A DNA stretch of 47,369 bases from a virus (lineage: Duplodnaviria; Caudoviricetes). A program made the translations under genes and the position numbers. This document shows positions 1 through 13,336 of the stretch, in pieces (position 1 is the stretch's first letter; the number at the start of each line of letters is the position of its first letter). The DNA is taken from IMG/VR virus record IMGVR_UViG_3300030330_005822, positions 1 to 47,369 of that record; one strand, given 5' to 3'. Under the pieces are notes generated by a model. The model worked only from the letters and a program-made list of their open reading frames with translations. It ran no database searches and was not told the origin of the DNA.

Positions 1-2
1 CT

Positions 3-101
3 CTAAAAAACTCAATCACCCCGATTCCAGAACAGATCATCCGATCCATTGAGCTGCAGTTTGACGTATTTAAACCCCTTAGATTTTTAGGAGTAAAATA
101 A
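3..101 (+). CDS. 3' end of a truncated hypothetical gene
   Basis: Open frame LKNSITPIPEQIIRSIELQFDVFKPLRFLGVK* from the window edge; its TAA overlaps the next ATG (TAATG). Confidence 0.4.
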   Translation, partial: LKNSITPIPEQIIRSIELQFDVFKPLRFLGVK

Positions 102-340
102 TGGGTATTGAATTTAACACAGATAACTTAACTGAAGAGCAACGAGACTTACTTGATGATGTGCATGATGCCGGTGGTCTAGCAAGTTTCATCATCTCAG
201 GTACAGATGAAGTTGACAGTGCTGTTGATTGCCCGGATTTTGACTTAGTTGTTGAAGGCCATTGGCTCGGCGATTACCTGATCAGCTTCAATGCATACAA
301 AGAGGGCGTATGGGCTGTGGAGTATCAACTCTTAGATTAA
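101..340 (+). CDS. Acidic hypothetical protein
   Basis: 79-aa ORF with AGGAG RBS upstream and TAATG coupling. Confidence 0.7.
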   Translation: MGIEFNTDNLTEEQRDLLDDVHDAGGLASFIISGTDEVDSAVDCPDFDLVVEGHWLGDYLISFNAYKEGVWAVEYQLLD

Positions 341-380
341 TTACCTTACTGACTTTTCAACAACTCCCCTCCATCCATTC

Positions 381-389
381 TGATATAAT
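381..389 (+). promoter_or_regulatory. Extended -10 promoter element (TGnTATAAT)
   Basis: TGATATAAT upstream of the ATG at 421; a motif copy (351-365) overlaps the expected -35 region. Confidence 0.55.
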
Positions 390-420
390 AGACTCTGTTC
401 ACAAAACGGAGTCTTTTTTT

Positions 421-768
421 ATGGAATCAATCACATCGATACTAACTGAAATACTACCTGCCCTCCTAGCCGGCGGTGGATTGCTTTGGAACTTCTCAAA
501 AGAGATCACCCGGATCCAGGCGCAGCTCCAAGCCTTGCGACATCAAATAGAGGATTGCAAAGGACACATTGAATCGAATAGACAAGGCAGGATTGAAGTC
601 TTTGGAGTCATCAACAGCTCCTTGAAGCCTCAAATCCAAAACGCATCCGAGCGTATTGCCAGATTAGAGGAAAGAGTTCATGGGGGGGTGGATTCAAAAG
701 AGATCTATTCCAGGTTGGCGAGGTTGGAAGCCGAGCTTAATTGCCTTGAAGAGAAAGCAACGAAATAA
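421..768 (+). CDS. Small membrane protein: N-terminal hydrophobic helix plus coiled coil
   Basis: Likely start MESITSILTEILPALLAGGGLLW with GGAG RBS; heptad-like IARLEERV / LARLEAEL; stop abuts the cyclase ATG. Confidence 0.7.
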   Translation: MESITSILTEILPALLAGGGLLWNFSKEITRIQAQLQALRHQIEDCKGHIESNRQGRIEVFGVINSSLKPQIQNASERIARLEERVHGGVDSKEIYSRLARLEAELNCLEEKATK

Positions 769-1611
769 ATGAATCCCATTGAGCCAACCTTTGCGATCAT
801 CGTTGTGATCGACTTAGCCAACTCCACCCGCTTCATTGAGAAAGTAGGAGACAGGAGAGCTGCAGAGGTATTTAGGCTCTATGACCGGATCTTTCGAGGT
901 CTGTTGATCAAGTATGATGGGATTGAAATAGACAAGACTGATGGAGCCCTCCTCATCTTTGAGTCCATCAGGGACGCTGTAAGATATTCATTGGAGTATC
1001 ACAAACTAGTTGAGACCCACCTGCAGCTACAAAGCAGGGTAGGCATTCATGCCGGGATTGTGATGATGAGCTCCAATTCCCAAATATGGGTATCCAGGGG
1101 AGCTAAACCAATCGAGGTGGAGGGCGTTCACAAGTCAATCTGTGCAAGGGTTTGCTCATTAGCTGATCCGGGTCAAACACTAATGACTGAAAGAGCAGCC
1201 CAGGTAGCTATGGCGCACGCCTCCTCAATTGGAGGTCTCCTCTTTGGGAATATGGGGAAGTACATCCTGAAGGGTGTCAAGAATCCGATGGCAATATATG
1301 GGGTGGCATTAAAAGCTCAAAGAGATCGGCTCCACCTCCCTTCTCCTAAAGAGAAAGTCAAGTTGCACTCCCGACCCCCCATATCGACCAAGGAAAAATG
1401 GAAAAGGAGGTTCCGAAGATATGTTATCCCATACCTCCTGCTGCATAGCGTCCGAGCGTATCTCCTGTTGATGTCGATATGGGAGTTTCCATCCGGAATA
1501 ATCAACAAGTCAATCGATCAACTGGATGCGATCATCCACACAATACATTCACTCCCAAATCCGTATTTTTGGATTCAGGTGTGGAGGTCAATATCTGAAT
1601 GGATGATCTAA
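769..1611 (+). CDS. Class III (adenylate/guanylate-type) nucleotidyl cyclase domain with hydrophobic C-terminus
   Basis: IDLANST, IDKTDG, RVGIHAG, ARVCSLADPGQTLM and LKGVKNP match the class III cyclase motif order; basic stretch followed by a hydrophobic helix at the C-terminus. Confidence 0.85.
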   Translation: MNPIEPTFAIIVVIDLANSTRFIEKVGDRRAAEVFRLYDRIFRGLLIKYDGIEIDKTDGALLIFESIRDAVRYSLEYHKLVETHLQLQSRVGIHAGIVMMSSNSQIWVSRGAKPIEVEGVHKSICARVCSLADPGQTLMTERAAQVAMAHASSIGGLLFGNMGKYILKGVKNPMAIYGVALKAQRDRLHLPSPKEKVKLHSRPPISTKEKWKRRFRRYVIPYLLLHSVRAYLLLMSIWEFPSGIINKSIDQLDAIIHTIHSLPNPYFWIQVWRSISEWMI

Positions 1612-2438
1612 GTTAAAAAAAAGAATTTAGATTACCTTCAGTAATATTCCATTAGCGAAACTTTAGTTTTTTATTTTTTTTAATATTAACTTTTTCTTTG
1701 TTTTGAATCCTAAGCGCACTTTGGGTCATCATGGCTACCCATATATATGTTATTAATTTAAACGCCATTACAGGGCCTTCTAGGGGCCTCCATGAAAACC
1801 ACGCCTAGGTGGATCTAATTTTTAAAAAAAGACAATTTTTAACCCTTCGATTTACCCCCTTTTATTTTTTTTATACTTCCTTATGGGATTTTTGATACTT
1901 GGGTATTGATAATACTGGGTTTGGGGATTTGGCCTATTTTGACCCCGGAAGCTCCAATATGGTAGTAAAAGGGTGCATACCCCCCATAGAAATCGGCTAC
2001 CAGGGCGCAAGCTGCGCCTAAATCGACCATAAAATAAAGGGATCCCATAAATGCGTTTTAAGCCACTTTAAATCCAATACCCTACCCATGGGTATGGATA
2101 ATCCAAAAAAGCTCCTTAGAAGCCAAATACAGGCCCTTAAAACATGACGTTTAAGGCCCTTAAAAAGTAATCGGGATCGTTCGATATAGCTGAGAGTAAA
2201 CAAACAGTAAAAGACTAGAGAAAGAAGATTATGATTATGATCAGGTCTTTTGTTTTACTTGGTACATCTTGTTTATTAGTTATATGCTGTTACTTTTGTA
2301 TATTTATGTGTATTATGTCTTATGATTTTTATTTTGTCAAATTGCCGCAAAATTTGGTGGTTTCTTACCGTAGTTAATCTAGGGCCGAAAATGTGGAGGT
2401 CTGGATCAACGACTTGTTTATTTTGATAGGGAGTAGAC
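1612..2438. other. Long AT-rich non-coding region
   Basis: About 830 bp with no credible ORF; homopolymer tracts; short palindromes (TACCCATGGGTA; GGCGCA-agc-TGCGCC). Confidence 0.7.
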
Positions 2439-3026
2439 ATGACTATGCGTATATGTGTAGAGGGTATTATGGGTGCGGGTAAAAGTAGTTTAGTTAATGG
2501 TCTTCGATGCGCCGAAAATTTCAATATTTTTGACGAGGCCGTTATGTTTGATGGTGAAGTGGATAATGGGTTCTTTACTCAGATAAAGTTTTTAAAGTCT
2601 AGACATGATCAATGGAAGTCCTATGCGCCGGATTTTTTCAATGTGTATGACCGATCTGTTTGGTCAGATAGTGTCTTTGCCCGGATTGGTTTATCCTATG
2701 GGGATATCTCTTGTTCTGAGTTTGATCTTTACTTAGCAGCACGCCGAATCTTTCTTGAATCTTCTCCTTTGCCTGATGTGATCTTCTTTCTTGATATCGA
2801 AGCTGAACAAGCTATGAATCGAGTTAAAGCCCGTGGGAATATTGATCAAGATGTTAACTATGGTTTCCTGTTGCGCCAAAAAGTAGCCTATGAACTTTTT
2901 CTTGAAGAGATGGAGGCTAAGGGAGTTGAAGTTGTCTGCATTGATGGCTGCGATTCAAAAGAAAGCATCCTTGAATGCGTAATTACTATGACTAAGGACT
3001 TTTCAACAACTTATGGAGAAAAATAA
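2439..3026 (+). CDS. Deoxynucleoside / dNMP kinase
   Basis: P-loop EGIMGAGKSS, DRSVWSD motif, lid RVKARG. Confidence 0.85.
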   Translation: MTMRICVEGIMGAGKSSLVNGLRCAENFNIFDEAVMFDGEVDNGFFTQIKFLKSRHDQWKSYAPDFFNVYDRSVWSDSVFARIGLSYGDISCSEFDLYLAARRIFLESSPLPDVIFFLDIEAEQAMNRVKARGNIDQDVNYGFLLRQKVAYELFLEEMEAKGVEVVCIDGCDSKESILECVITMTKDFSTTYGEK

Positions 3027-3027
3027 T

Positions 3028-3264
3028 ATGGCAAATTGGGCAACCCCTACAGTATGTGATTCTTACCAAAGAGAAAGATCTTTGGATAAGGCAATCGAGA
3101 GGGCTAATGGTGTGAGAAAAGGACGCAAGGCTCCAGGTACACTAACTGAGCAAGTATGCTTTCCATGGACACAACAAGTTTACTCGTTAGTTTCTGCCTA
3201 CAATAAAGAAAACAGCAAAGAAGATATTTACGAATATGTGAAAAGGAGACTAAATGTTAATTAA
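3028..3264 (+). CDS. Small protein made of one WxTP...L.EQV module (C5-MTase variable-region-like)
   Basis: MANWATPTVCD...GTLTEQVC resembles the WGTP/WATP units of the 4895-6181 ORF; GGAG RBS before ATG 3028. Confidence 0.65.
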   Translation: MANWATPTVCDSYQRERSLDKAIERANGVRKGRKAPGTLTEQVCFPWTQQVYSLVSAYNKENSKEDIYEYVKRRLNVN

Positions 3265-4890: not shown

Positions 4891-6027
4891 ATGAATGTGG
4901 ATATTACCAAAAAACCTTCCGAACTCACCCATATCTCCCTCTGTTCCGGATACGGAGGAATTGACCTCGGATTTAAACGAGCTGGCTTGCCTATCCGAAC
5001 AGTCACTTATGTGGAGATCGAAACCTTCGTCTGCCAAAACTTGGTTGCGAAGATGGAAAAAGGGTGGATTGATGTCGCTCCTATCTGGACGAATCTTAAA
5101 ACCTTCAATTGGGGACTCTTTAATGGAAAAGTGGATATCCTCAGTGGAGGCTTCCCTTGTCAGCCATTTAGTCAAGCAGGAAGAAGGGATGGAAGTGAAG
5201 ACCCAAGACACCTGTGGCCGTACATCGTTGAAGGAATCAAACAGTTGGGAAGACCTCCCGTTGTTTTCTTTGAAAACGTTGAAGGAATCATCAGCTCAAA
5301 GCTCAAAGGAGACACATGGCTTGACCCAGAAGGAACAAGTGTTCTGCACCATGTCCTCAAAGAGTTGGAAAGATTGGGTTACGAAGCAACGGCAGGCGTA
5401 TTCTCAGCGAGTGAAGTCGGTGCGCCCCATCAACGAAAACGAGTCTTTATACTTGGTGTCAATTCAAGACTCAACAAGCAAGGAAGAGACTTTATTACTT
5501 CAAAACTCTCTAGAGGATTCAGACCTATCTTGGGGGACTCCGAGATCAACGATGAGCACCTACGGCGAGACAGAGGTGTTGACGAAGGAGGGGAAGTTCA
5601 AGAAGGAGTGGCAATTCAGACTAGAGAACCAAGTGTGCGAAATGAAAGATGGATTGCTTACCCCGCAGCAAGAGGAGTTGGTCAATACTCGTGGGAACCT
5701 CCAAGAACAGTCATGGGCCACACCGGCAAGTCGGGATTGGAAGGGGAAGTACCCCAAACACTCTCAAGAAAAGAAACTCCGAAGCTTCCTGCCGGATCAG
5801 GCTCACATCGGTTCGTATGTGGGGAGACTGAATCCTCGTTGGGTAGAGACCTTGATGGGTGTACCAGTGGGGTGGACATCTCCGAATTGTACACACGTAC
5901 TGACAATAGAACAGATGAACTTAGAATGCTTGGAAACGGAGTTGTACCTGCAACATGCACAAGAGCAATCAGAGTCTTGTGGAGCCAATTGGGGCACTCC
6001 TACAACGAGCCAACTTCAGTTAAATGA
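4891..6027 (+). CDS. dcm: C5-cytosine DNA methyltransferase, catalytic (alpha) chain lacking motif IX
   Basis: Motif I LCSGYGG, IV GGFPCQPFS, VI FFENVEG, VIII PHQRKRVFILG, X LRMLGNGVVP; no motif IX in this frame. Confidence 0.92.
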   Translation: MNVDITKKPSELTHISLCSGYGGIDLGFKRAGLPIRTVTYVEIETFVCQNLVAKMEKGWIDVAPIWTNLKTFNWGLFNGKVDILSGGFPCQPFSQAGRRDGSEDPRHLWPYIVEGIKQLGRPPVVFFENVEGIISSKLKGDTWLDPEGTSVLHHVLKELERLGYEATAGVFSASEVGAPHQRKRVFILGVNSRLNKQGRDFITSKLSRGFRPILGDSEINDEHLRRDRGVDEGGEVQEGVAIQTREPSVRNERWIAYPAARGVGQYSWEPPRTVMGHTGKSGLEGEVPQTLSRKETPKLPAGSGSHRFVCGETESSLGRDLDGCTSGVDISELYTRTDNRTDELRMLGNGVVPATCTRAIRVLWSQLGHSYNEPTSVK

Positions 6028-6181
6028 ATCTTTGGGTGCGTACTTGCGAAGATCTAAAAAGAGAATTGATACCGGCAAATCTGTTTTTCCTACTCAGTTG
6101 ACTTTTGAAGTTGAGGCTGAGGAATCCGGAGTAGATATTAAGAAAGAACTAGAAGAACACAAGAAAGTAGTGAACAAATAA
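4895..6181 (+). CDS. Overlapping +1-frame C5-MTase beta chain carrying motif IX and three WxTP modules
   Basis: 428 codons open across the whole MTase gene; RLNPRWVETLMGVPVGWT is motif-IX-like; WGTP (5531), WATP (5714), WGTP (5990). Confidence 0.8.
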   Translation: MWILPKNLPNSPISPSVPDTEELTSDLNELACLSEQSLMWRSKPSSAKTWLRRWKKGGLMSLLSGRILKPSIGDSLMEKWISSVEASLVSHLVKQEEGMEVKTQDTCGRTSLKESNSWEDLPLFSLKTLKESSAQSSKETHGLTQKEQVFCTMSSKSWKDWVTKQRQAYSQRVKSVRPINENESLYLVSIQDSTSKEETLLLQNSLEDSDLSWGTPRSTMSTYGETEVLTKEGKFKKEWQFRLENQVCEMKDGLLTPQQEELVNTRGNLQEQSWATPASRDWKGKYPKHSQEKKLRSFLPDQAHIGSYVGRLNPRWVETLMGVPVGWTSPNCTHVLTIEQMNLECLETELYLQHAQEQSESCGANWGTPTTSQLQLNESLGAYLRRSKKRIDTGKSVFPTQLTFEVEAEESGVDIKKELEEHKKVVNK

Positions 6182-10000: not shown

Positions 10001-11926
10001 TCACAACTCGCAAGCTCCACCCGTACAAGCAATTTCAAAACTACCTTCACCCATATCGTATTCTTCAAAATCACTGAGCTTAGTGTAATCAATATTTGGA
10101 AAAGTTTTGATTTCCTCTTCATATTGTTCTTGTGTGATTTCCTCATATGGAGCCAACTCATACTTACCTCCATCGTATGGAAGGAAAGATAAGCCAATGA
10201 TGTCATCAAAATTATCCCATACCCATTGGCCTACTTTATCCCAATCATCATTCTTGACATAGATTGTAGCAGACTGATTATGGCCTCGTTTCTTACACCA
10301 GGTATTCATAATTTTTAAGTATCTTTCCATCTGATCGAAAGATGTCTCGTCATCTCTAGTCATGGATCCATCGGGCGATTTTACCGGGAATCTAGCGACC
10401 CAAGTCTTTACTTGATCTTCAGGCAAGTCTTGCTGTCCAACTTCTTTGAACATAGGCACACCTTGACTTTTCAACAAGTCAGATAAAGGATCGTCTGCAC
10501 TTACACGTACGTGTCTAAAGTAATATTTGCTGTATCTAGGATGGAAACCACTTGCACAATCTAACATTTGAGACGTATTACCGCTCGGTTTCCCGCAGGT
10601 GATCGCTGCAGGCATATTGATACCTAATCTACTTGAGGCAACCCTAGCTGTTCTAACTGCAATCTTATTTAACAAAGTAAGGAACTCTGCATTGCCCATC
10701 AGTAATGGATTATCACATTGACCGGTCAAATCCACACCGATCAATCGATCCTCTTGACACAATTCAGTCCAAGTAGGACGCAGGTATGGGAATTTTGTGA
10801 ATGTGGCCTGTAGGCACCCTAACCAGGTTGCTAGGATAACCTTTTTCTTGATATCCTTTGCTGTATCATCGGATCGAACTACAACAGCCGAAAGATTACA
10901 GAATTGCCCGCCTCCACCTTCACCTGTCCATGGATCCACTGCCTCTCTATATCTCAGTCCGATTTCATGGCAAGGATTAGATCTAACTTCACCTTGCGGT
11001 CTAGGAGCTTTTTTCCACCAATTATCTATTGATAGCCCTCGTTCTCCTGCACCCGACTCTGCAAGTTGTGTCCACTCCCGATCAAACACCTCTTTACTTG
11101 GTTTCTCTGCAAAGTATGCGGAGTTGTTTGCCATGTATCTACGCAATGGGAACGCCGCTTTTTTCCAATCCTTGGCGTGTCTCATTTCTACATCGTTTGG
11201 ATCTGAGAAAGAGATCATTGCAGAGCGTCTCACTCCGCCAACAACTACAACCTCTGCTAGTGAGCAGCAGATATCATGGCACTCAATCGGTTTTAGTTTT
11301 CTGCCTGATGCATTTCGGATTGTCTCACGAATAAAATCAATTGCTGCAATTAAGGGTTCGGGTCCACTAGCTCGTCCTCCTTTAGTTTTGAGGATTGACC
11401 CCCTAGGACGAATCAAAGAGTAATCGATTTGAAATGTGTGTCCTTTAAATGCAGAAGTGACAGCAAAGTATACCGCATCTGCCCATCCATCTGATGAGTC
11501 TTGAACTTGATAAATTGTCAAATCCTCTTCAACAGGAAGGGATACGAAAGGTAAGTTTTTTACAAACTTTTCCTCTACAGAAAACCCAACACCGGTTCCT
11601 TGCATGAGGATATAAATCAACTCTGAGAATGCCTTCAGATTATCAATGGGCATAAAAGAGCAATTATAGATAGCTGTGTTGTCTGTTGATGCAAACTCAC
11701 CCGATGCCCACAATGCTCTCATCGAGGGCATGACCTGTTGATTAAGGATGGCTTCTTTTAAATCAATCTTTAATTCTTCATCAATATCTTTAGATTCAAT
11801 TAAAAACTTAGATACCCGGTCAACGGTCTCACTCCAAGTTTCTCTTCTTTTGCTCTCTGGCAACCAACGTGCATAAGAGCGTAGGTATACTAATTCACCG
11901 AGTTGATTTGGGAAATCACTCATCAT
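10001..11926 (-). CDS. nrdJ: Class II (B12-dependent) ribonucleotide reductase
   Basis: YNCSF, GTGVGF, NPCHEI, KPSGNTS and C-terminal CTGGACEL; no beta-subunit gene nearby. Confidence 0.92.
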   Translation of the reverse strand: MMSDFPNQLGELVYLRSYARWLPESKRRETWSETVDRVSKFLIESKDIDEELKIDLKEAILNQQVMPSMRALWASGEFASTDNTAIYNCSFMPIDNLKAFSELIYILMQGTGVGFSVEEKFVKNLPFVSLPVEEDLTIYQVQDSSDGWADAVYFAVTSAFKGHTFQIDYSLIRPRGSILKTKGGRASGPEPLIAAIDFIRETIRNASGRKLKPIECHDICCSLAEVVVVGGVRRSAMISFSDPNDVEMRHAKDWKKAAFPLRRYMANNSAYFAEKPSKEVFDREWTQLAESGAGERGLSIDNWWKKAPRPQGEVRSNPCHEIGLRYREAVDPWTGEGGGGQFCNLSAVVVRSDDTAKDIKKKVILATWLGCLQATFTKFPYLRPTWTELCQEDRLIGVDLTGQCDNPLLMGNAEFLTLLNKIAVRTARVASSRLGINMPAAITCGKPSGNTSQMLDCASGFHPRYSKYYFRHVRVSADDPLSDLLKSQGVPMFKEVGQQDLPEDQVKTWVARFPVKSPDGSMTRDDETSFDQMERYLKIMNTWCKKRGHNQSATIYVKNDDWDKVGQWVWDNFDDIIGLSFLPYDGGKYELAPYEEITQEQYEEEIKTFPNIDYTKLSDFEEYDMGEGSFEIACTGGACEL

Positions 11927-13304
11927 CTTTCTCCATGGGACTAACGTCAATTATTTTCTCTGATTGTGAGGGTCGGGATCCACCGCCTCCACTTCTTCCA
12001 TAACCACCGAAAAGCCTAGAAATTACACCAGAACCCTTTGCTTTTATCGTTATCTCGTCATCACTTGAGGGTGCAAGAATCTCCTTCGCATCCTTCATCA
12101 CTTGCATTAAAGTCTGAACTTCAGTTGACACCTCAGGATTGATGCCGTTGTTCTGAATCTTTTCTGCGTAAGATGCAAAGAGAACTCGTTCTCCCTGGAT
12201 TTGAATGACCTTGTTTACTAGAGATTGTAGATCCTGTGGTGTATTTACTTTTGGATCTGACGATAAGTTGCATTGGGAATCTGGTTCATAAACCGGACAG
12301 TTCGGACTAAGGAAGCACGAATTACAAGACCTCAATGATGCACCAAAACCATTTCCATTTGCAAGAGCAGTTGTTTGAAAAACTTGATCAAGAGCTTTAG
12401 ATTCAGCTTTAATAATTGATTTATTTTCTGATGGCAATTCCCTTTTAGTCCAATAGCCTCCAACGTACTCTGAGTCCATTGAATATCGTTTCCACTGATG
12501 GCAATTCCAAAGATCAATTTGATGTTGATCATCGTTTAAAAAACCATCTCGATCTACCCCATACTTAAGACACTCGGTAGCAAACTGCTCTCTAACTTCC
12601 TTACCTCTGCCTCGTTTGGATGAGTGGGTAACCATCTTCATGTTTCCTACATAGTGATATGTATTTCCATATCGACCACCGCCTGCCCAGGTTGAGGAGT
12701 CAACAGAAAAGAAGATACCTGATGTAATGTCCTTTTTTGAAGATCGACCCCACCCATGGATCTTTACGCCGGATTCTTTGTACTTCTTAATATTTGAAAA
12801 TACCTCTCCTTGTAGCTCCTCTAGCTCAAGGTCTTTAGAATACCCAACGTATGCATACTTTGCTAAGTATGGTTTGATCTGATCAATAGATGTGATCGTA
12901 GGCATTGCTTTATCCAGTACCCCATATTCCTTCCAAAGATCGTCGTATCCGACATCAACCGGGATTGACGGATATGCAATAACGTCAACAGGTAATTCTG
13001 ATATCCAATCCAAGTATGCCCTTAGTTCTTTTCTTGCACGCTCCATAAAGCCCAATTGCAGCTCTTCAATGGATTTGTTTTTTATTTGCTTTTGTCTTTT
13101 GGCACTTGACTCATCCCAAAGATACTTATATCTACTCCAAAGTTTATTTAGAGAGTAATTAATGATCACAAAATCAAAAGTACCTATTAACTCAGGATTG
13201 CGATGTAGATCACAACCATAATCTAATACTACTGACTTTACTTGAGCTTCTTTGATTACGTCTAAGTGTGCTTTTCTAGTGAATCCACTAAAACACAATT
13301 TCAT
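11916..13304 (-). CDS. TGT/DpdA-like fold protein fused to a Cys-rich C-terminal domain
   Basis: KIHGWG...FFSVDSSTWAGGGRYG resembles the HxxG...DSSxW tail of phage TGT-like proteins; CNSCFLSPNCPVYEPDSQC cluster; no N-terminal DSG motif seen. Confidence 0.65.
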   Translation of the reverse strand: MKLCFSGFTRKAHLDVIKEAQVKSVVLDYGCDLHRNPELIGTFDFVIINYSLNKLWSRYKYLWDESSAKRQKQIKNKSIEELQLGFMERARKELRAYLDWISELPVDVIAYPSIPVDVGYDDLWKEYGVLDKAMPTITSIDQIKPYLAKYAYVGYSKDLELEELQGEVFSNIKKYKESGVKIHGWGRSSKKDITSGIFFSVDSSTWAGGGRYGNTYHYVGNMKMVTHSSKRGRGKEVREQFATECLKYGVDRDGFLNDDQHQIDLWNCHQWKRYSMDSEYVGGYWTKRELPSENKSIIKAESKALDQVFQTTALANGNGFGASLRSCNSCFLSPNCPVYEPDSQCNLSSDPKVNTPQDLQSLVNKVIQIQGERVLFASYAEKIQNNGINPEVSTEVQTLMQVMKDAKEILAPSSDDEITIKAKGSGVISRLFGGYGRSGGGGSRPSQSEKIIDVSPMEKDDE

Positions 13305-13336
13305 GTCTTATCCTTTTTGTTGAAAAGTCATATTAC

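Follow-up and report, generated by a model that had tools for sequence, protein, structure and literature searches.

At positions 421 to 1,611 of the viral sequence studied here, two genes adjoin on the same strand, one for a membrane-anchored class III nucleotide cyclase of 280 residues and one, directly upstream of it, for a single-pass transmembrane (TM) protein of 115 residues. The sequence, IMG/VR record IMGVR_UViG_3300030330_005822 (Duplodnaviria; Caudoviricetes), is linear and comprises 47,369 bases at a CheckV completeness of about 49%; this entire stretch is referred to as the window. A preliminary description, made from the letters alone, had proposed a phage-encoded cyclase with a non-canonical active site. 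The comparisons presented below lead us to favour, with moderate confidence, a conserved two-gene phage operon in which a membrane-tethered cyclase of the XC_0250/TIGR04510 type, predicted to form cyclic guanosine monophosphate (cGMP), is combined with the small partner protein.

The cyclase, its anchor and the adjoining gene

Both open reading frames (ORFs) lie at the positions given in the preliminary description (Table 1). The cyclase fold on which that description depended is predicted by an AlphaFold2 (AF2) model built from 34 relatives, with a predicted local distance difference test (pLDDT) score of 87.7. A Foldseek search with the cyclase returned 187 PDB matches at E <= 0.001, headed by Rv1900c (1ybu_A; E 6.6e-15, TMt 0.92, root-mean-square deviation 1.6 A) and followed by Ma1120, CyaB and Cya2. 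The cyclase profile also found Rv1900c in the PDB at 8e-12, and the LipJ model matched the cyclase at 9e-12. Within NCBIfam, TIGR04510 matched residues 10-196 on profile positions 7-201 of 814 (E 4e-40, 138.1 bits). This covers the N-terminal domain only and does not reach the cut-off of the model at 400 bits. The resemblance to TIGR04510 noted earlier is real where the domain itself is concerned. Taken together, AF2, Foldseek and the hidden Markov model (HMM) alignment support a class III cyclase with both metal-binding aspartates. PHROGs contained no family matching the cyclase, and no paper on TIGR04510 or its family name turned up in the literature searched.

The protein had been described as reduced to a cyclase plus a membrane anchor, and this is what was found: it ends at residue 280, shortly after a predicted membrane helix at residues 217-241. 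A hydrophobic segment at the anchor position occurs in 78 of 81 members of the cyclase family (threshold 1.5), and the TIGR04510 proteins of Xanthomonadales have a TM segment at the equivalent place (221-258). As a basic stretch precedes the helix on its N-terminal side, the catalytic domain would be expected to be cytoplasmic.

The cyclase gene directly abuts the TM/coiled-coil gene, as had been noted before. In tblastn searches, 17 of 19 related loci (L002-L020) had the partner gene immediately before the cyclase gene; of the other two, L019 is truncated at the 5' end and L015 lacks this partner. No partner was detected by tblastn in any of 79 bacterial loci, and all 16 close loci recovered by a partner search of IMG/VR are on cyclase contigs. 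The pair is therefore conserved far beyond chance. In the relatives the genes abut or overlap by 1, 4 or 11 nt and their frame relation varies, indicating two coupled genes rather than one read-through gene; read-through of the two in-frame ORFs across the TAA was accordingly rejected as an explanation. The junctions fit translational coupling. Both genes are under strong purifying selection: the ratio of nonsynonymous to synonymous substitution (dN/dS) is 0.02-0.07 in the partner and 0.04-0.09 in the cyclase.

Table 1. Position of the features of the cyclase-partner locus within the window, with the evidence used to define them
Feature	Position	Strand	Basis
Copy of the dispersed window motif GACTTTTCAACAA	351..363	+	21 nt upstream of the -10 hexamer
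Extended -10-like string TGATATAAT, 32 nt before the partner ATG	381..389	+	Read from the sequence
Hairpin of 10 bp (390-414), then a T run; 3' arm with GGAG Shine-Dalgarno-like string (408-411)	390..420	+	Terminator-like site scan; sequence
Gene of the partner (115 aa), which passes the membrane once and extends as a long coiled-coil-like helix	421..768	+	ORF list, hydropathy, structure prediction
Partner membrane helix, about residues 4-22, ending in invariant GLLW-FS	430..486	+	Hydropathy; invariant G20, L21, L22, W23, F25, S26
Best-conserved partner stretch: E51, NRQGR (53-57), FGV-N (61-65)	571..615	+	Invariant columns, 14 sequences
Stop/start junction TAAATG between partner and cyclase	766..771	+	Sequence
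Gene of the cyclase (280 aa), with its domain, linker, membrane helix and a short tail	769..1611	+	ORF list, profile match, AF2, Foldseek, hydropathy
Class III cyclase homology domain, residues 7-187	787..1329	+	AF2 strands and helices 6-187; Foldseek to Rv1900c and Ma1120; TIGR04510 N-terminal domain
EIDKTDG, residues 53-59; D58 second metal Asp, D55 at the canonical substrate-Lys position	925..945	+	HMM alignment to Rv1900c and Ma1120
RGAKPIEVEG..KSICAR, residues 110-127	1096..1149	+	HMM alignment, conservation
Linker with conserved P-K-x-x-[DE]-K-V-K and polybasic KEKWKRRFRRY	1330..1416	+	Family alignment
Predicted cyclase membrane helix, residues 217-241	1417..1491	+	Hydropathy 1.6; AF2 helix 207-238
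Poorly conserved C-terminal tail, about 39 aa, presumably outside the cytoplasm	1492..1608	+	Positive-inside rule

Active site and relatives of the cyclase

Profile alignment to solved cyclases places the metal-binding aspartates at D15 and D58, both invariant, which correspond to what we take to be D302 and D346 of Rv1900c (numbering derived from the chain index). The C-terminal phosphate-binding motif falls on K168-G169 in the profile alignment, and R127, also invariant, is the transition-state arginine. The strings quoted in the preliminary description are all present: VIDLANST with D15, EIDKTDG (53-59), RGAKPIEVEG (110-119) and KSICAR (122-127). The canonical Asp position is occupied by E116, and the canonical Asn position by S123, which varies in the family (S, V, N or A) and is adjoined by the invariant K122. 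One residue is deleted beside D55, and due to this deletion K56 could also be within reach of the substrate pocket.

In a set of 34 phage and 78 bacterial sequences, sharing only about 40% identity overall, the invariant or near-invariant positions are D15, S19, G27-D28, R43, E53-I-D-K/R-T-D-G59, R90, H94, N103, R110-G-A-K113, E116, G119, K122, A126-R127 and G169. Since the odd motifs (EIDKTDG, RGAKPxExEG, KxxxAR) are near-invariant in both groups, they are, judged by their conservation, not decay. The active site is thus non-canonical in its motifs, as claimed earlier, but these represent the conserved signature of a working subfamily and not a peculiarity of this phage.

The best structural matches, Rv1900c (LipJ) and Ma1120 (1YBT/1YBU, 4WP9, 5D0E; TMt 0.88-0.92), are minimal cyclases of one domain, in which the canonical Asn is absent as well. 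Sinha and colleagues are said to have described, in 2005, N342 and H402 of Rv1900c, with H402 at the canonical Asn place. Both proteins differ from the phage cyclase in that they are only 20-26% identical to it, have neither the RGAKP insert nor EIDKTDG, and bear the name adenylyl cyclase in their PDB entries. Ma1120 carries A164 instead of Asn, and an A164N change lowered its activity (PMC4215837). As Ma1120 is active without this residue, its absence from the phage protein is compatible with activity.

A protein search yielded 83 proteins, of which 81 are 235-332 aa in length, 38-94% identical and without Pfam annotation, and relatives of the cyclase are encoded at 18 IMG/VR loci. Among 185,579 species genomes, 224 matching stretches were identified, and the best 80 of these 224 were compared. 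The short form was present in only one of the 80 (L020), which is a contig of a metagenome-assembled genome on which the adjoining gene matches a PHROG family. The short cyclase form is hence found almost only in viral DNA. The other 79 genome matches are N-terminal domains of long proteins. Three architectures were recognized: cyclase-TM-TPR proteins in Xanthomonadales (two of them, L047 and L094, scoring 681 and 679 bits to TIGR04510), cyclase-Ser/Thr kinase-TM-TPR proteins in Acidobacteriota, Gemmatimonadota and Planctomycetota, and cyclase-STAND/AAA-TPR proteins in Burkholderiales. A search of BFVD returned a few automatically named cyclase-domain proteins, from giant viruses and uncultured Caudovirales, none of them close. 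All 34 sequences of the short form group as a single clade in a tree built by FastTree (support 100, stem length 1.36).

The distribution and conservation of the short form also bear on the possibility that it is not an enzyme at all, but a decoy or dominant-negative dimer partner of a host receptor cyclase. Active sites of class III cyclases form across the dimer, and a truncated homologue could poison the host enzyme; the phage form indeed lacks the whole sensor part. However, every metal- and phosphate-binding position is invariant and dN/dS is about 0.05, whereas a dimer with a host enzyme would have to be formed by proteins of only some 40% identity, too distant for a specific heterodimer. 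In addition, the bacterial relatives occur in Xanthomonadales, Burkholderiales, Acidobacteriota, Gemmatimonadota and Planctomycetota, whereas the phage DNA was found in marine metagenome runs. We therefore regard a non-catalytic role as very improbable.

Likely product and role of the gene pair

The product of the phage enzyme can be approached through XC_0250 of Xanthomonas campestris, a protein of 886 aa with a cyclase domain and TPR repeats (An et al. 2013, PMC3770947). According to that report, its isolated domain (aa 1-220) converted GTP to cGMP and was inactive on ATP, enzymatic activity was lost in D41 and D71 variants of the domain, and clones with D41A, D71A, L73A or L157A did not restore cGMP. 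The neighbouring gene product, XC_0249, is a cyclic nucleoside monophosphate (cNMP)-binding GGDEF protein activated by cGMP (PMC3770947). Three observations tie XC_0250 to the relatives found here. Bacterial cyclase-TM-TPR relatives are equal to it in architecture and length. A gene with PF00027 and PF00990 is located directly upstream of the cyclase-TM-TPR gene in L074 and L059, and by tblastn such a cNMP-binding GGDEF gene lies upstream in 61 of 152 bacterial loci, a count in which locus sets overlap and which does not represent independent genomes. Finally, D41, D71, A150 and A161 of XC_0250 correspond, at a single offset of 6, to the invariant D35, D65, A144 and A155 of L074; by the same offset L157 becomes L151 of L074. 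The equivalents of D41 and D71 in the phage protein are the invariant residues D28 and D58.

Like the phage cyclase, proteins of the XC_0250 type start with a class III domain that is followed by a membrane segment. Bacterial proteins of this architecture have EIDKTDG, RGAKPxExEG and K-x3-AR in common with the phage protein and are about 40% identical to it over residues 1-200. The phage cyclase differs in being viral rather than cellular and in stopping about 39 residues past the membrane helix, without TPR repeats. Similarly, compared to TIGR04510, the TM segment is at the equivalent position, but about 600 profile residues (the TPR region) are missing. The phage pair has no cNMP-GGDEF neighbour and a different, small partner instead. 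As the isolated domain of XC_0250 is active, a form without sensor can work. Because the XC_0250-type relative is specific for GTP, cGMP is the best guess for the product of the phage enzyme. The earlier suggestion that the signal is possibly not cyclic adenosine monophosphate (cAMP) fits XC_0250, whose domain makes cGMP and is inactive on ATP.

Several findings weigh against this reading. The assignment of cGMP draws on homology alone, and the placement of XC_0250 in the subfamily rests on architecture, neighbour gene and residue spacing. Substrate specificity is set by the residue pair K/D in adenylyl cyclases and by pairs of the E/C type in known guanylyl cyclases; the base-recognition pair of the phage protein, D55/E116, is neither. 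The long branch (1.36) separating the phage clade from all bacterial sequences could reflect a shift in specificity. Pfam Guanylate_cyc (PF00211) remained below threshold (12.9 bits versus 21.9; E 0.085); bona fide TIGR04510 members are also near this threshold, at 19.2 and 25.0 bits. Of the models that the preliminary description had named for an HMM search, TIGR04510 alone did match, over its N-terminal domain, whereas Guanylate_cyc did not reach its threshold and PycC gave a best E of 0.0048. No receptor was found, as a search for PF00027 gave no match in any of five carrier records, all of which are fragments. Finally, one phage (L015) does without the single-TM partner, which is thus not strictly required.

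An active cyclase with another product, either cAMP or a pyrimidine cNMP, would agree with three observations: the nearest solved structures, Rv1900c and Ma1120, are adenylyl cyclases, D55/E116 fits no known specificity code, and the phage clade sits on a long branch. The signature of the active site, however, is common to XC_0250-type proteins and is not found in Rv1900c or Ma1120, and XC_0250, the only member of that architecture to have been characterised, is specific for GTP. A product other than cGMP is, in our view, rather improbable.

The name of TIGR04510, 'putative peptide modification system cyclase', would place the phage protein in a system for modification of peptides (ribosomally synthesised and post-translationally modified peptides, RiPPs). 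At the bona fide TIGR04510 loci L047 and L074, a cNMP-binding GGDEF gene is located on one side of the cyclase-TM-TPR gene and one to three NHLP-related peptide genes on the other, at L047 together with a SagB-related dehydrogenase gene. This arrangement makes a cGMP pathway and a putative RiPP system neighbours in these bacteria; that the periplasmic TPR part of the Xanthomonadales protein acts as a peptide sensor is speculation. The phage protein itself lacks the TPR part, no such genes were present in the viral neighbourhoods inspected, and TIGR04509 and TIGR04511 matched nowhere in the window, although this is a weak blank as the TIGR04509 control also matched nowhere. A role of the phage cyclase in peptide modification is therefore hardly credible.

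The partner protein is predicted as one helix spanning residues 2-87 and a second helix from 92 to 114 (pLDDT 83), and is even better conserved than the cyclase, with a mean column identity of 70% versus 56%. It has 36 close homologues. No family could be assigned, as there were sub-threshold coiled-coil matches only. Searched against 1.84 billion representatives, the partner profile gave 8 matches at E <= 0.001 and no distant relatives among them. Two of the matches come from its own family and two from fragments; the others are coiled-coil proteins of great length and repetitive sequence. Longer or fused forms of the partner were not found, which is weak evidence.

A small phage protein of related appearance was observed at L116 (2453-2752). 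This 99-aa ORF is 29% identical to the partner over residues 1-62 and has no cyclase adjoining; it has the helix end GGLLWNFSK in common with the partner, and then diverges, without an NRQGR motif. Both may belong to a wider class of small phage membrane proteins.

A second type of partner was identified through L015. The single-TM partner is absent from the whole 168-kb record, and a gene for a 173-aa coiled-coil protein with two TM segments (2-TM) directly follows the cyclase gene instead. This 2-TM gene has 224 relatives in IMG/VR; the 2-TM module is represented here by L015 and L195-L274. Among the best 80 of these 224 loci, a cyclase gene is directly upstream of the 2-TM gene in 74, and the single-TM partner was found in none. 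The cyclases of these loci, except that of L015, are 28-39% identical to that of the window, while the 2-TM protein of L015 is 64-82% identical across the 79 other loci kept. The cyclases of the 2-TM clade have a like layout with a conservatively altered signature (REIDRSDG, GAKRxELEG, KNIAAR). In a joint FastTree tree, the bacterial sequences, the window clade and the 2-TM clade were each on one side of a branch, with supports of 93, 99 and 99, in a tree that carries a long-branch warning; both phage clades together lie across the branch from the bacteria (support 93). The coupling of cyclase and partner is equally tight in both modules, but the partner of the window module has one TM segment and is encoded upstream, whereas that of the 2-TM module is encoded downstream of the cyclase.

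The cyclase of L015 shares 80% identity with its counterpart in L008 and groups in the tree with the cyclases of L005 and L008 (support 97), both of which have the single-TM partner, indicating a recent swap of partners. The hybrid module at L015 (5001-6375), composed of a cyclase of the window clade and a 2-TM partner, suggests recombination between the two module types. In the five records tested, the two partner types were mutually exclusive, and hhalign did not demonstrate homology between them, the probability being 1% with a single sequence and 15% (E 0.0018) when profiles were aligned. From these comparisons, the swap argues that both partner types would do the same job, and it weakly suggests that this job is independent of a finely co-evolved interface with the catalytic domain.

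In one explanation the pair would consist of a signal and an effector: the cyclase would make the nucleotide, and the small membrane protein would alter membrane integrity for lysis timing or, as an abortive or superinfection-exclusion module, to keep out other phages; only the logic resembles Pycsar. A diffusible signal explains the partner exchange in L015 more easily than a co-evolved interface does, given that 80%-identical cyclases (L015 and L008) occur with non-homologous partners and that a 2-TM protein of 64-82% identity adjoins cyclases only 28-39% identical to the window's. Sub-threshold matches of the partner also point to lysis proteins, namely an Rz-like spanin (E 0.013) and a hemolysin (E 0.024); XhlA appeared for 4 of the 14 partner members among the Pfam matches listed, and the Mu releasin family scored 0.92 (rank 26) in the protein atlas. 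However, these lysis-type matches are all below threshold and typical of coiled-coil bias, and no lysis genes adjoin the pair in the window, in L003 or in L017. By prediction, the partner consists of bare helices and has no known nucleotide-binding domain. We consider a signal-effector pair of this kind unlikely, though the most probable of the alternatives. The specific assignments that these matches suggested were not retained: as a spanin, releasin or XhlA lysis protein the partner has matches at E 0.013-0.11 only, with no lysis genes as neighbours, and the releasin lead (DUF2730) was dropped, as the Pfam matches listed for the 14 partner sequences, covering 25 of 65 families, do not include DUF2730.

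Pycsar pairs a PycC cyclase with an effector, either a membrane protein or of the TIR type, that carries a cNMP-binding domain. The phage pair is similar in that a class III-type cyclase stands beside a small membrane protein; it differs in that the cyclase itself is anchored in the membrane and the module is borne by a phage. The Pycsar-like unit considered in the preliminary description found no support, since the best PycC match reached only 14.3 bits over 58 residues (10-67) at an E of about 0.005 and the purely helical partner lacks a cNMP-binding domain. Host takeover and superinfection exclusion, also suggested there, are guesses.

A cGMP-making cyclase with a small partner, the reading we favour, may operate as follows. 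By the positive-inside rule, both proteins would insert in the inner membrane such that most of each lies in the cytoplasm. The cyclase domain would dimerise, as to our knowledge every class III cyclase does, and turn GTP into cGMP and pyrophosphate at the cytoplasmic face of the membrane. The partner would likely work together with the cyclase, either serving it as scaffold or regulator in the membrane or turning the signal into an output there. Receptors of the host are the proposed targets of the nucleotide, because no CAP-type cNMP-binding domain was found in the five carrier phage records. A bolder proposal, to which we assign little probability, is that marine phages possess a cGMP circuit of their own, in which a tail-anchored cyclase makes the nucleotide and interchangeable, unrelated small helical proteins with one or two TM segments serve as a novel kind of nucleotide-responsive output at the membrane and set the timing of lysis or block competitors.

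Cyclic nucleotides are central to the conflict between phages and their hosts, as in CBASS, Pycsar, Thoeris and type III CRISPR, and the known counter-measures of phages degrade or sponge the signals. We know of very few roles of cGMP in bacteria, and in the literature searched on phage-encoded adenylate or guanylate cyclases, no phage making a cyclic mononucleotide turned up. The module is a compact case, with a 280-aa enzyme and a 115-aa partner under control strings of their own, and the subfamily of the enzyme has one studied, cGMP-making member. The occurrence of two non-homologous partners, together with the swap on 80%-identical cyclases, is a natural experiment that narrows the role of the partner. 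Product and target, if found, would show whether phages steer the infected cell by second messengers of their own.

Putative control elements and phage setting

Upstream of the partner gene, the preliminary description had noticed an extended -10 promoter overlapped by a motif copy. Both strings are present; however, the motif copy is adjacent to the -10-like string and does not overlap it, and a scan for consensus promoters gave no call at TGATATAAT, since no -35 element is present. In most relatives the partner ATG is preceded, at a distance of 30-45 nt, by a -10-like string, and a Shine-Dalgarno-like string comes after each of these. The hairpin between the -10-like string and the partner gene may act as terminator of the upstream gene, as a mask over the ribosome site, or both.

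The window is a genuine phage fragment, and cyclase and partner are phage-encoded. It encodes replication proteins (DnaB, primase, PolA, helicases and a UvsX-like recombinase), proteins of nucleotide metabolism (ribonucleotide reductase, thymidylate synthase and a kinase), PhoH, a sigma factor, two DNA methyltransferases, and baseplate and tail-fibre proteins; the claim of a phage-encoded cyclase is borne out by this gene content. Neither the region nor the cyclase had a megablast or tblastn match in 50,697 phage records, and as the best match of the DNA polymerase is only 35% identical, no host could be inferred. The stretch is present in marine metagenome sequencing runs, with no RNA run among the listed runs carrying it.

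Carrier records are 35 to 168 kb long and 40-63% complete. In L003 the pair is on the opposite strand among genes of the head module, with the head protease gene on one side and, beyond an unassigned ORF, the portal gene on the other; in L017 it is on the opposite strand between the genes for portal and large terminase. As the pair is thus inserted on the opposite strand in differing phage backbones and brings its own -10-like strings, it is a mobile, moron-like unit across different marine phages.

The 13-nt motif G[A/T]CTTTTCAACAA, of which one copy precedes the pair, occurs 17 times in the window at up to 1 mismatch, versus 0.17 copies expected. Copies on the + strand are at 351, 2997, 3355, 6206, 7858, 10465, 22520, 26183, 27536, 28637 and 36877, and those on the - strand at 13317, 16949, 18469, 20802, 30072 and 44245. 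They are located both inside and between genes, without a fixed downstream -10 or other element. A phage protein may bind to this motif; the products encoded in the window include a sigma factor and a protein resembling ParB.

The cyclase gene is followed by an 827-nt stretch (1612-2438) without a convincing ORF, tRNA or Rfam match. It contains a near-consensus promoter-like site on the - strand (2340-2312, 11/12) and a terminator-like hairpin (2124-2110). The stretch from promoter to terminator (2100-2305, - strand) did not fold better than shuffled sequences (z 0.48). No Rfam family was found in window positions 1-3000, and no tRNA was found.

Two further ORFs, 4891..6027 (378 aa) and 4895..6181 (428 aa), overlap on the same strand in different frames. 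The former is a complete C5 DNA methyltransferase by PHROGs; that the second frame is open over 1.29 kb is unusual for DNA of 42% GC. Repeated W-x-T-P strings occur in ORF 4895..6181 and likewise in a small ORF at 3013..3264. At 11919-13304 (- strand), a gene resembling that of queuine tRNA-ribosyltransferase (PHROG 887) hints at 7-deazaguanine modification of the phage DNA.

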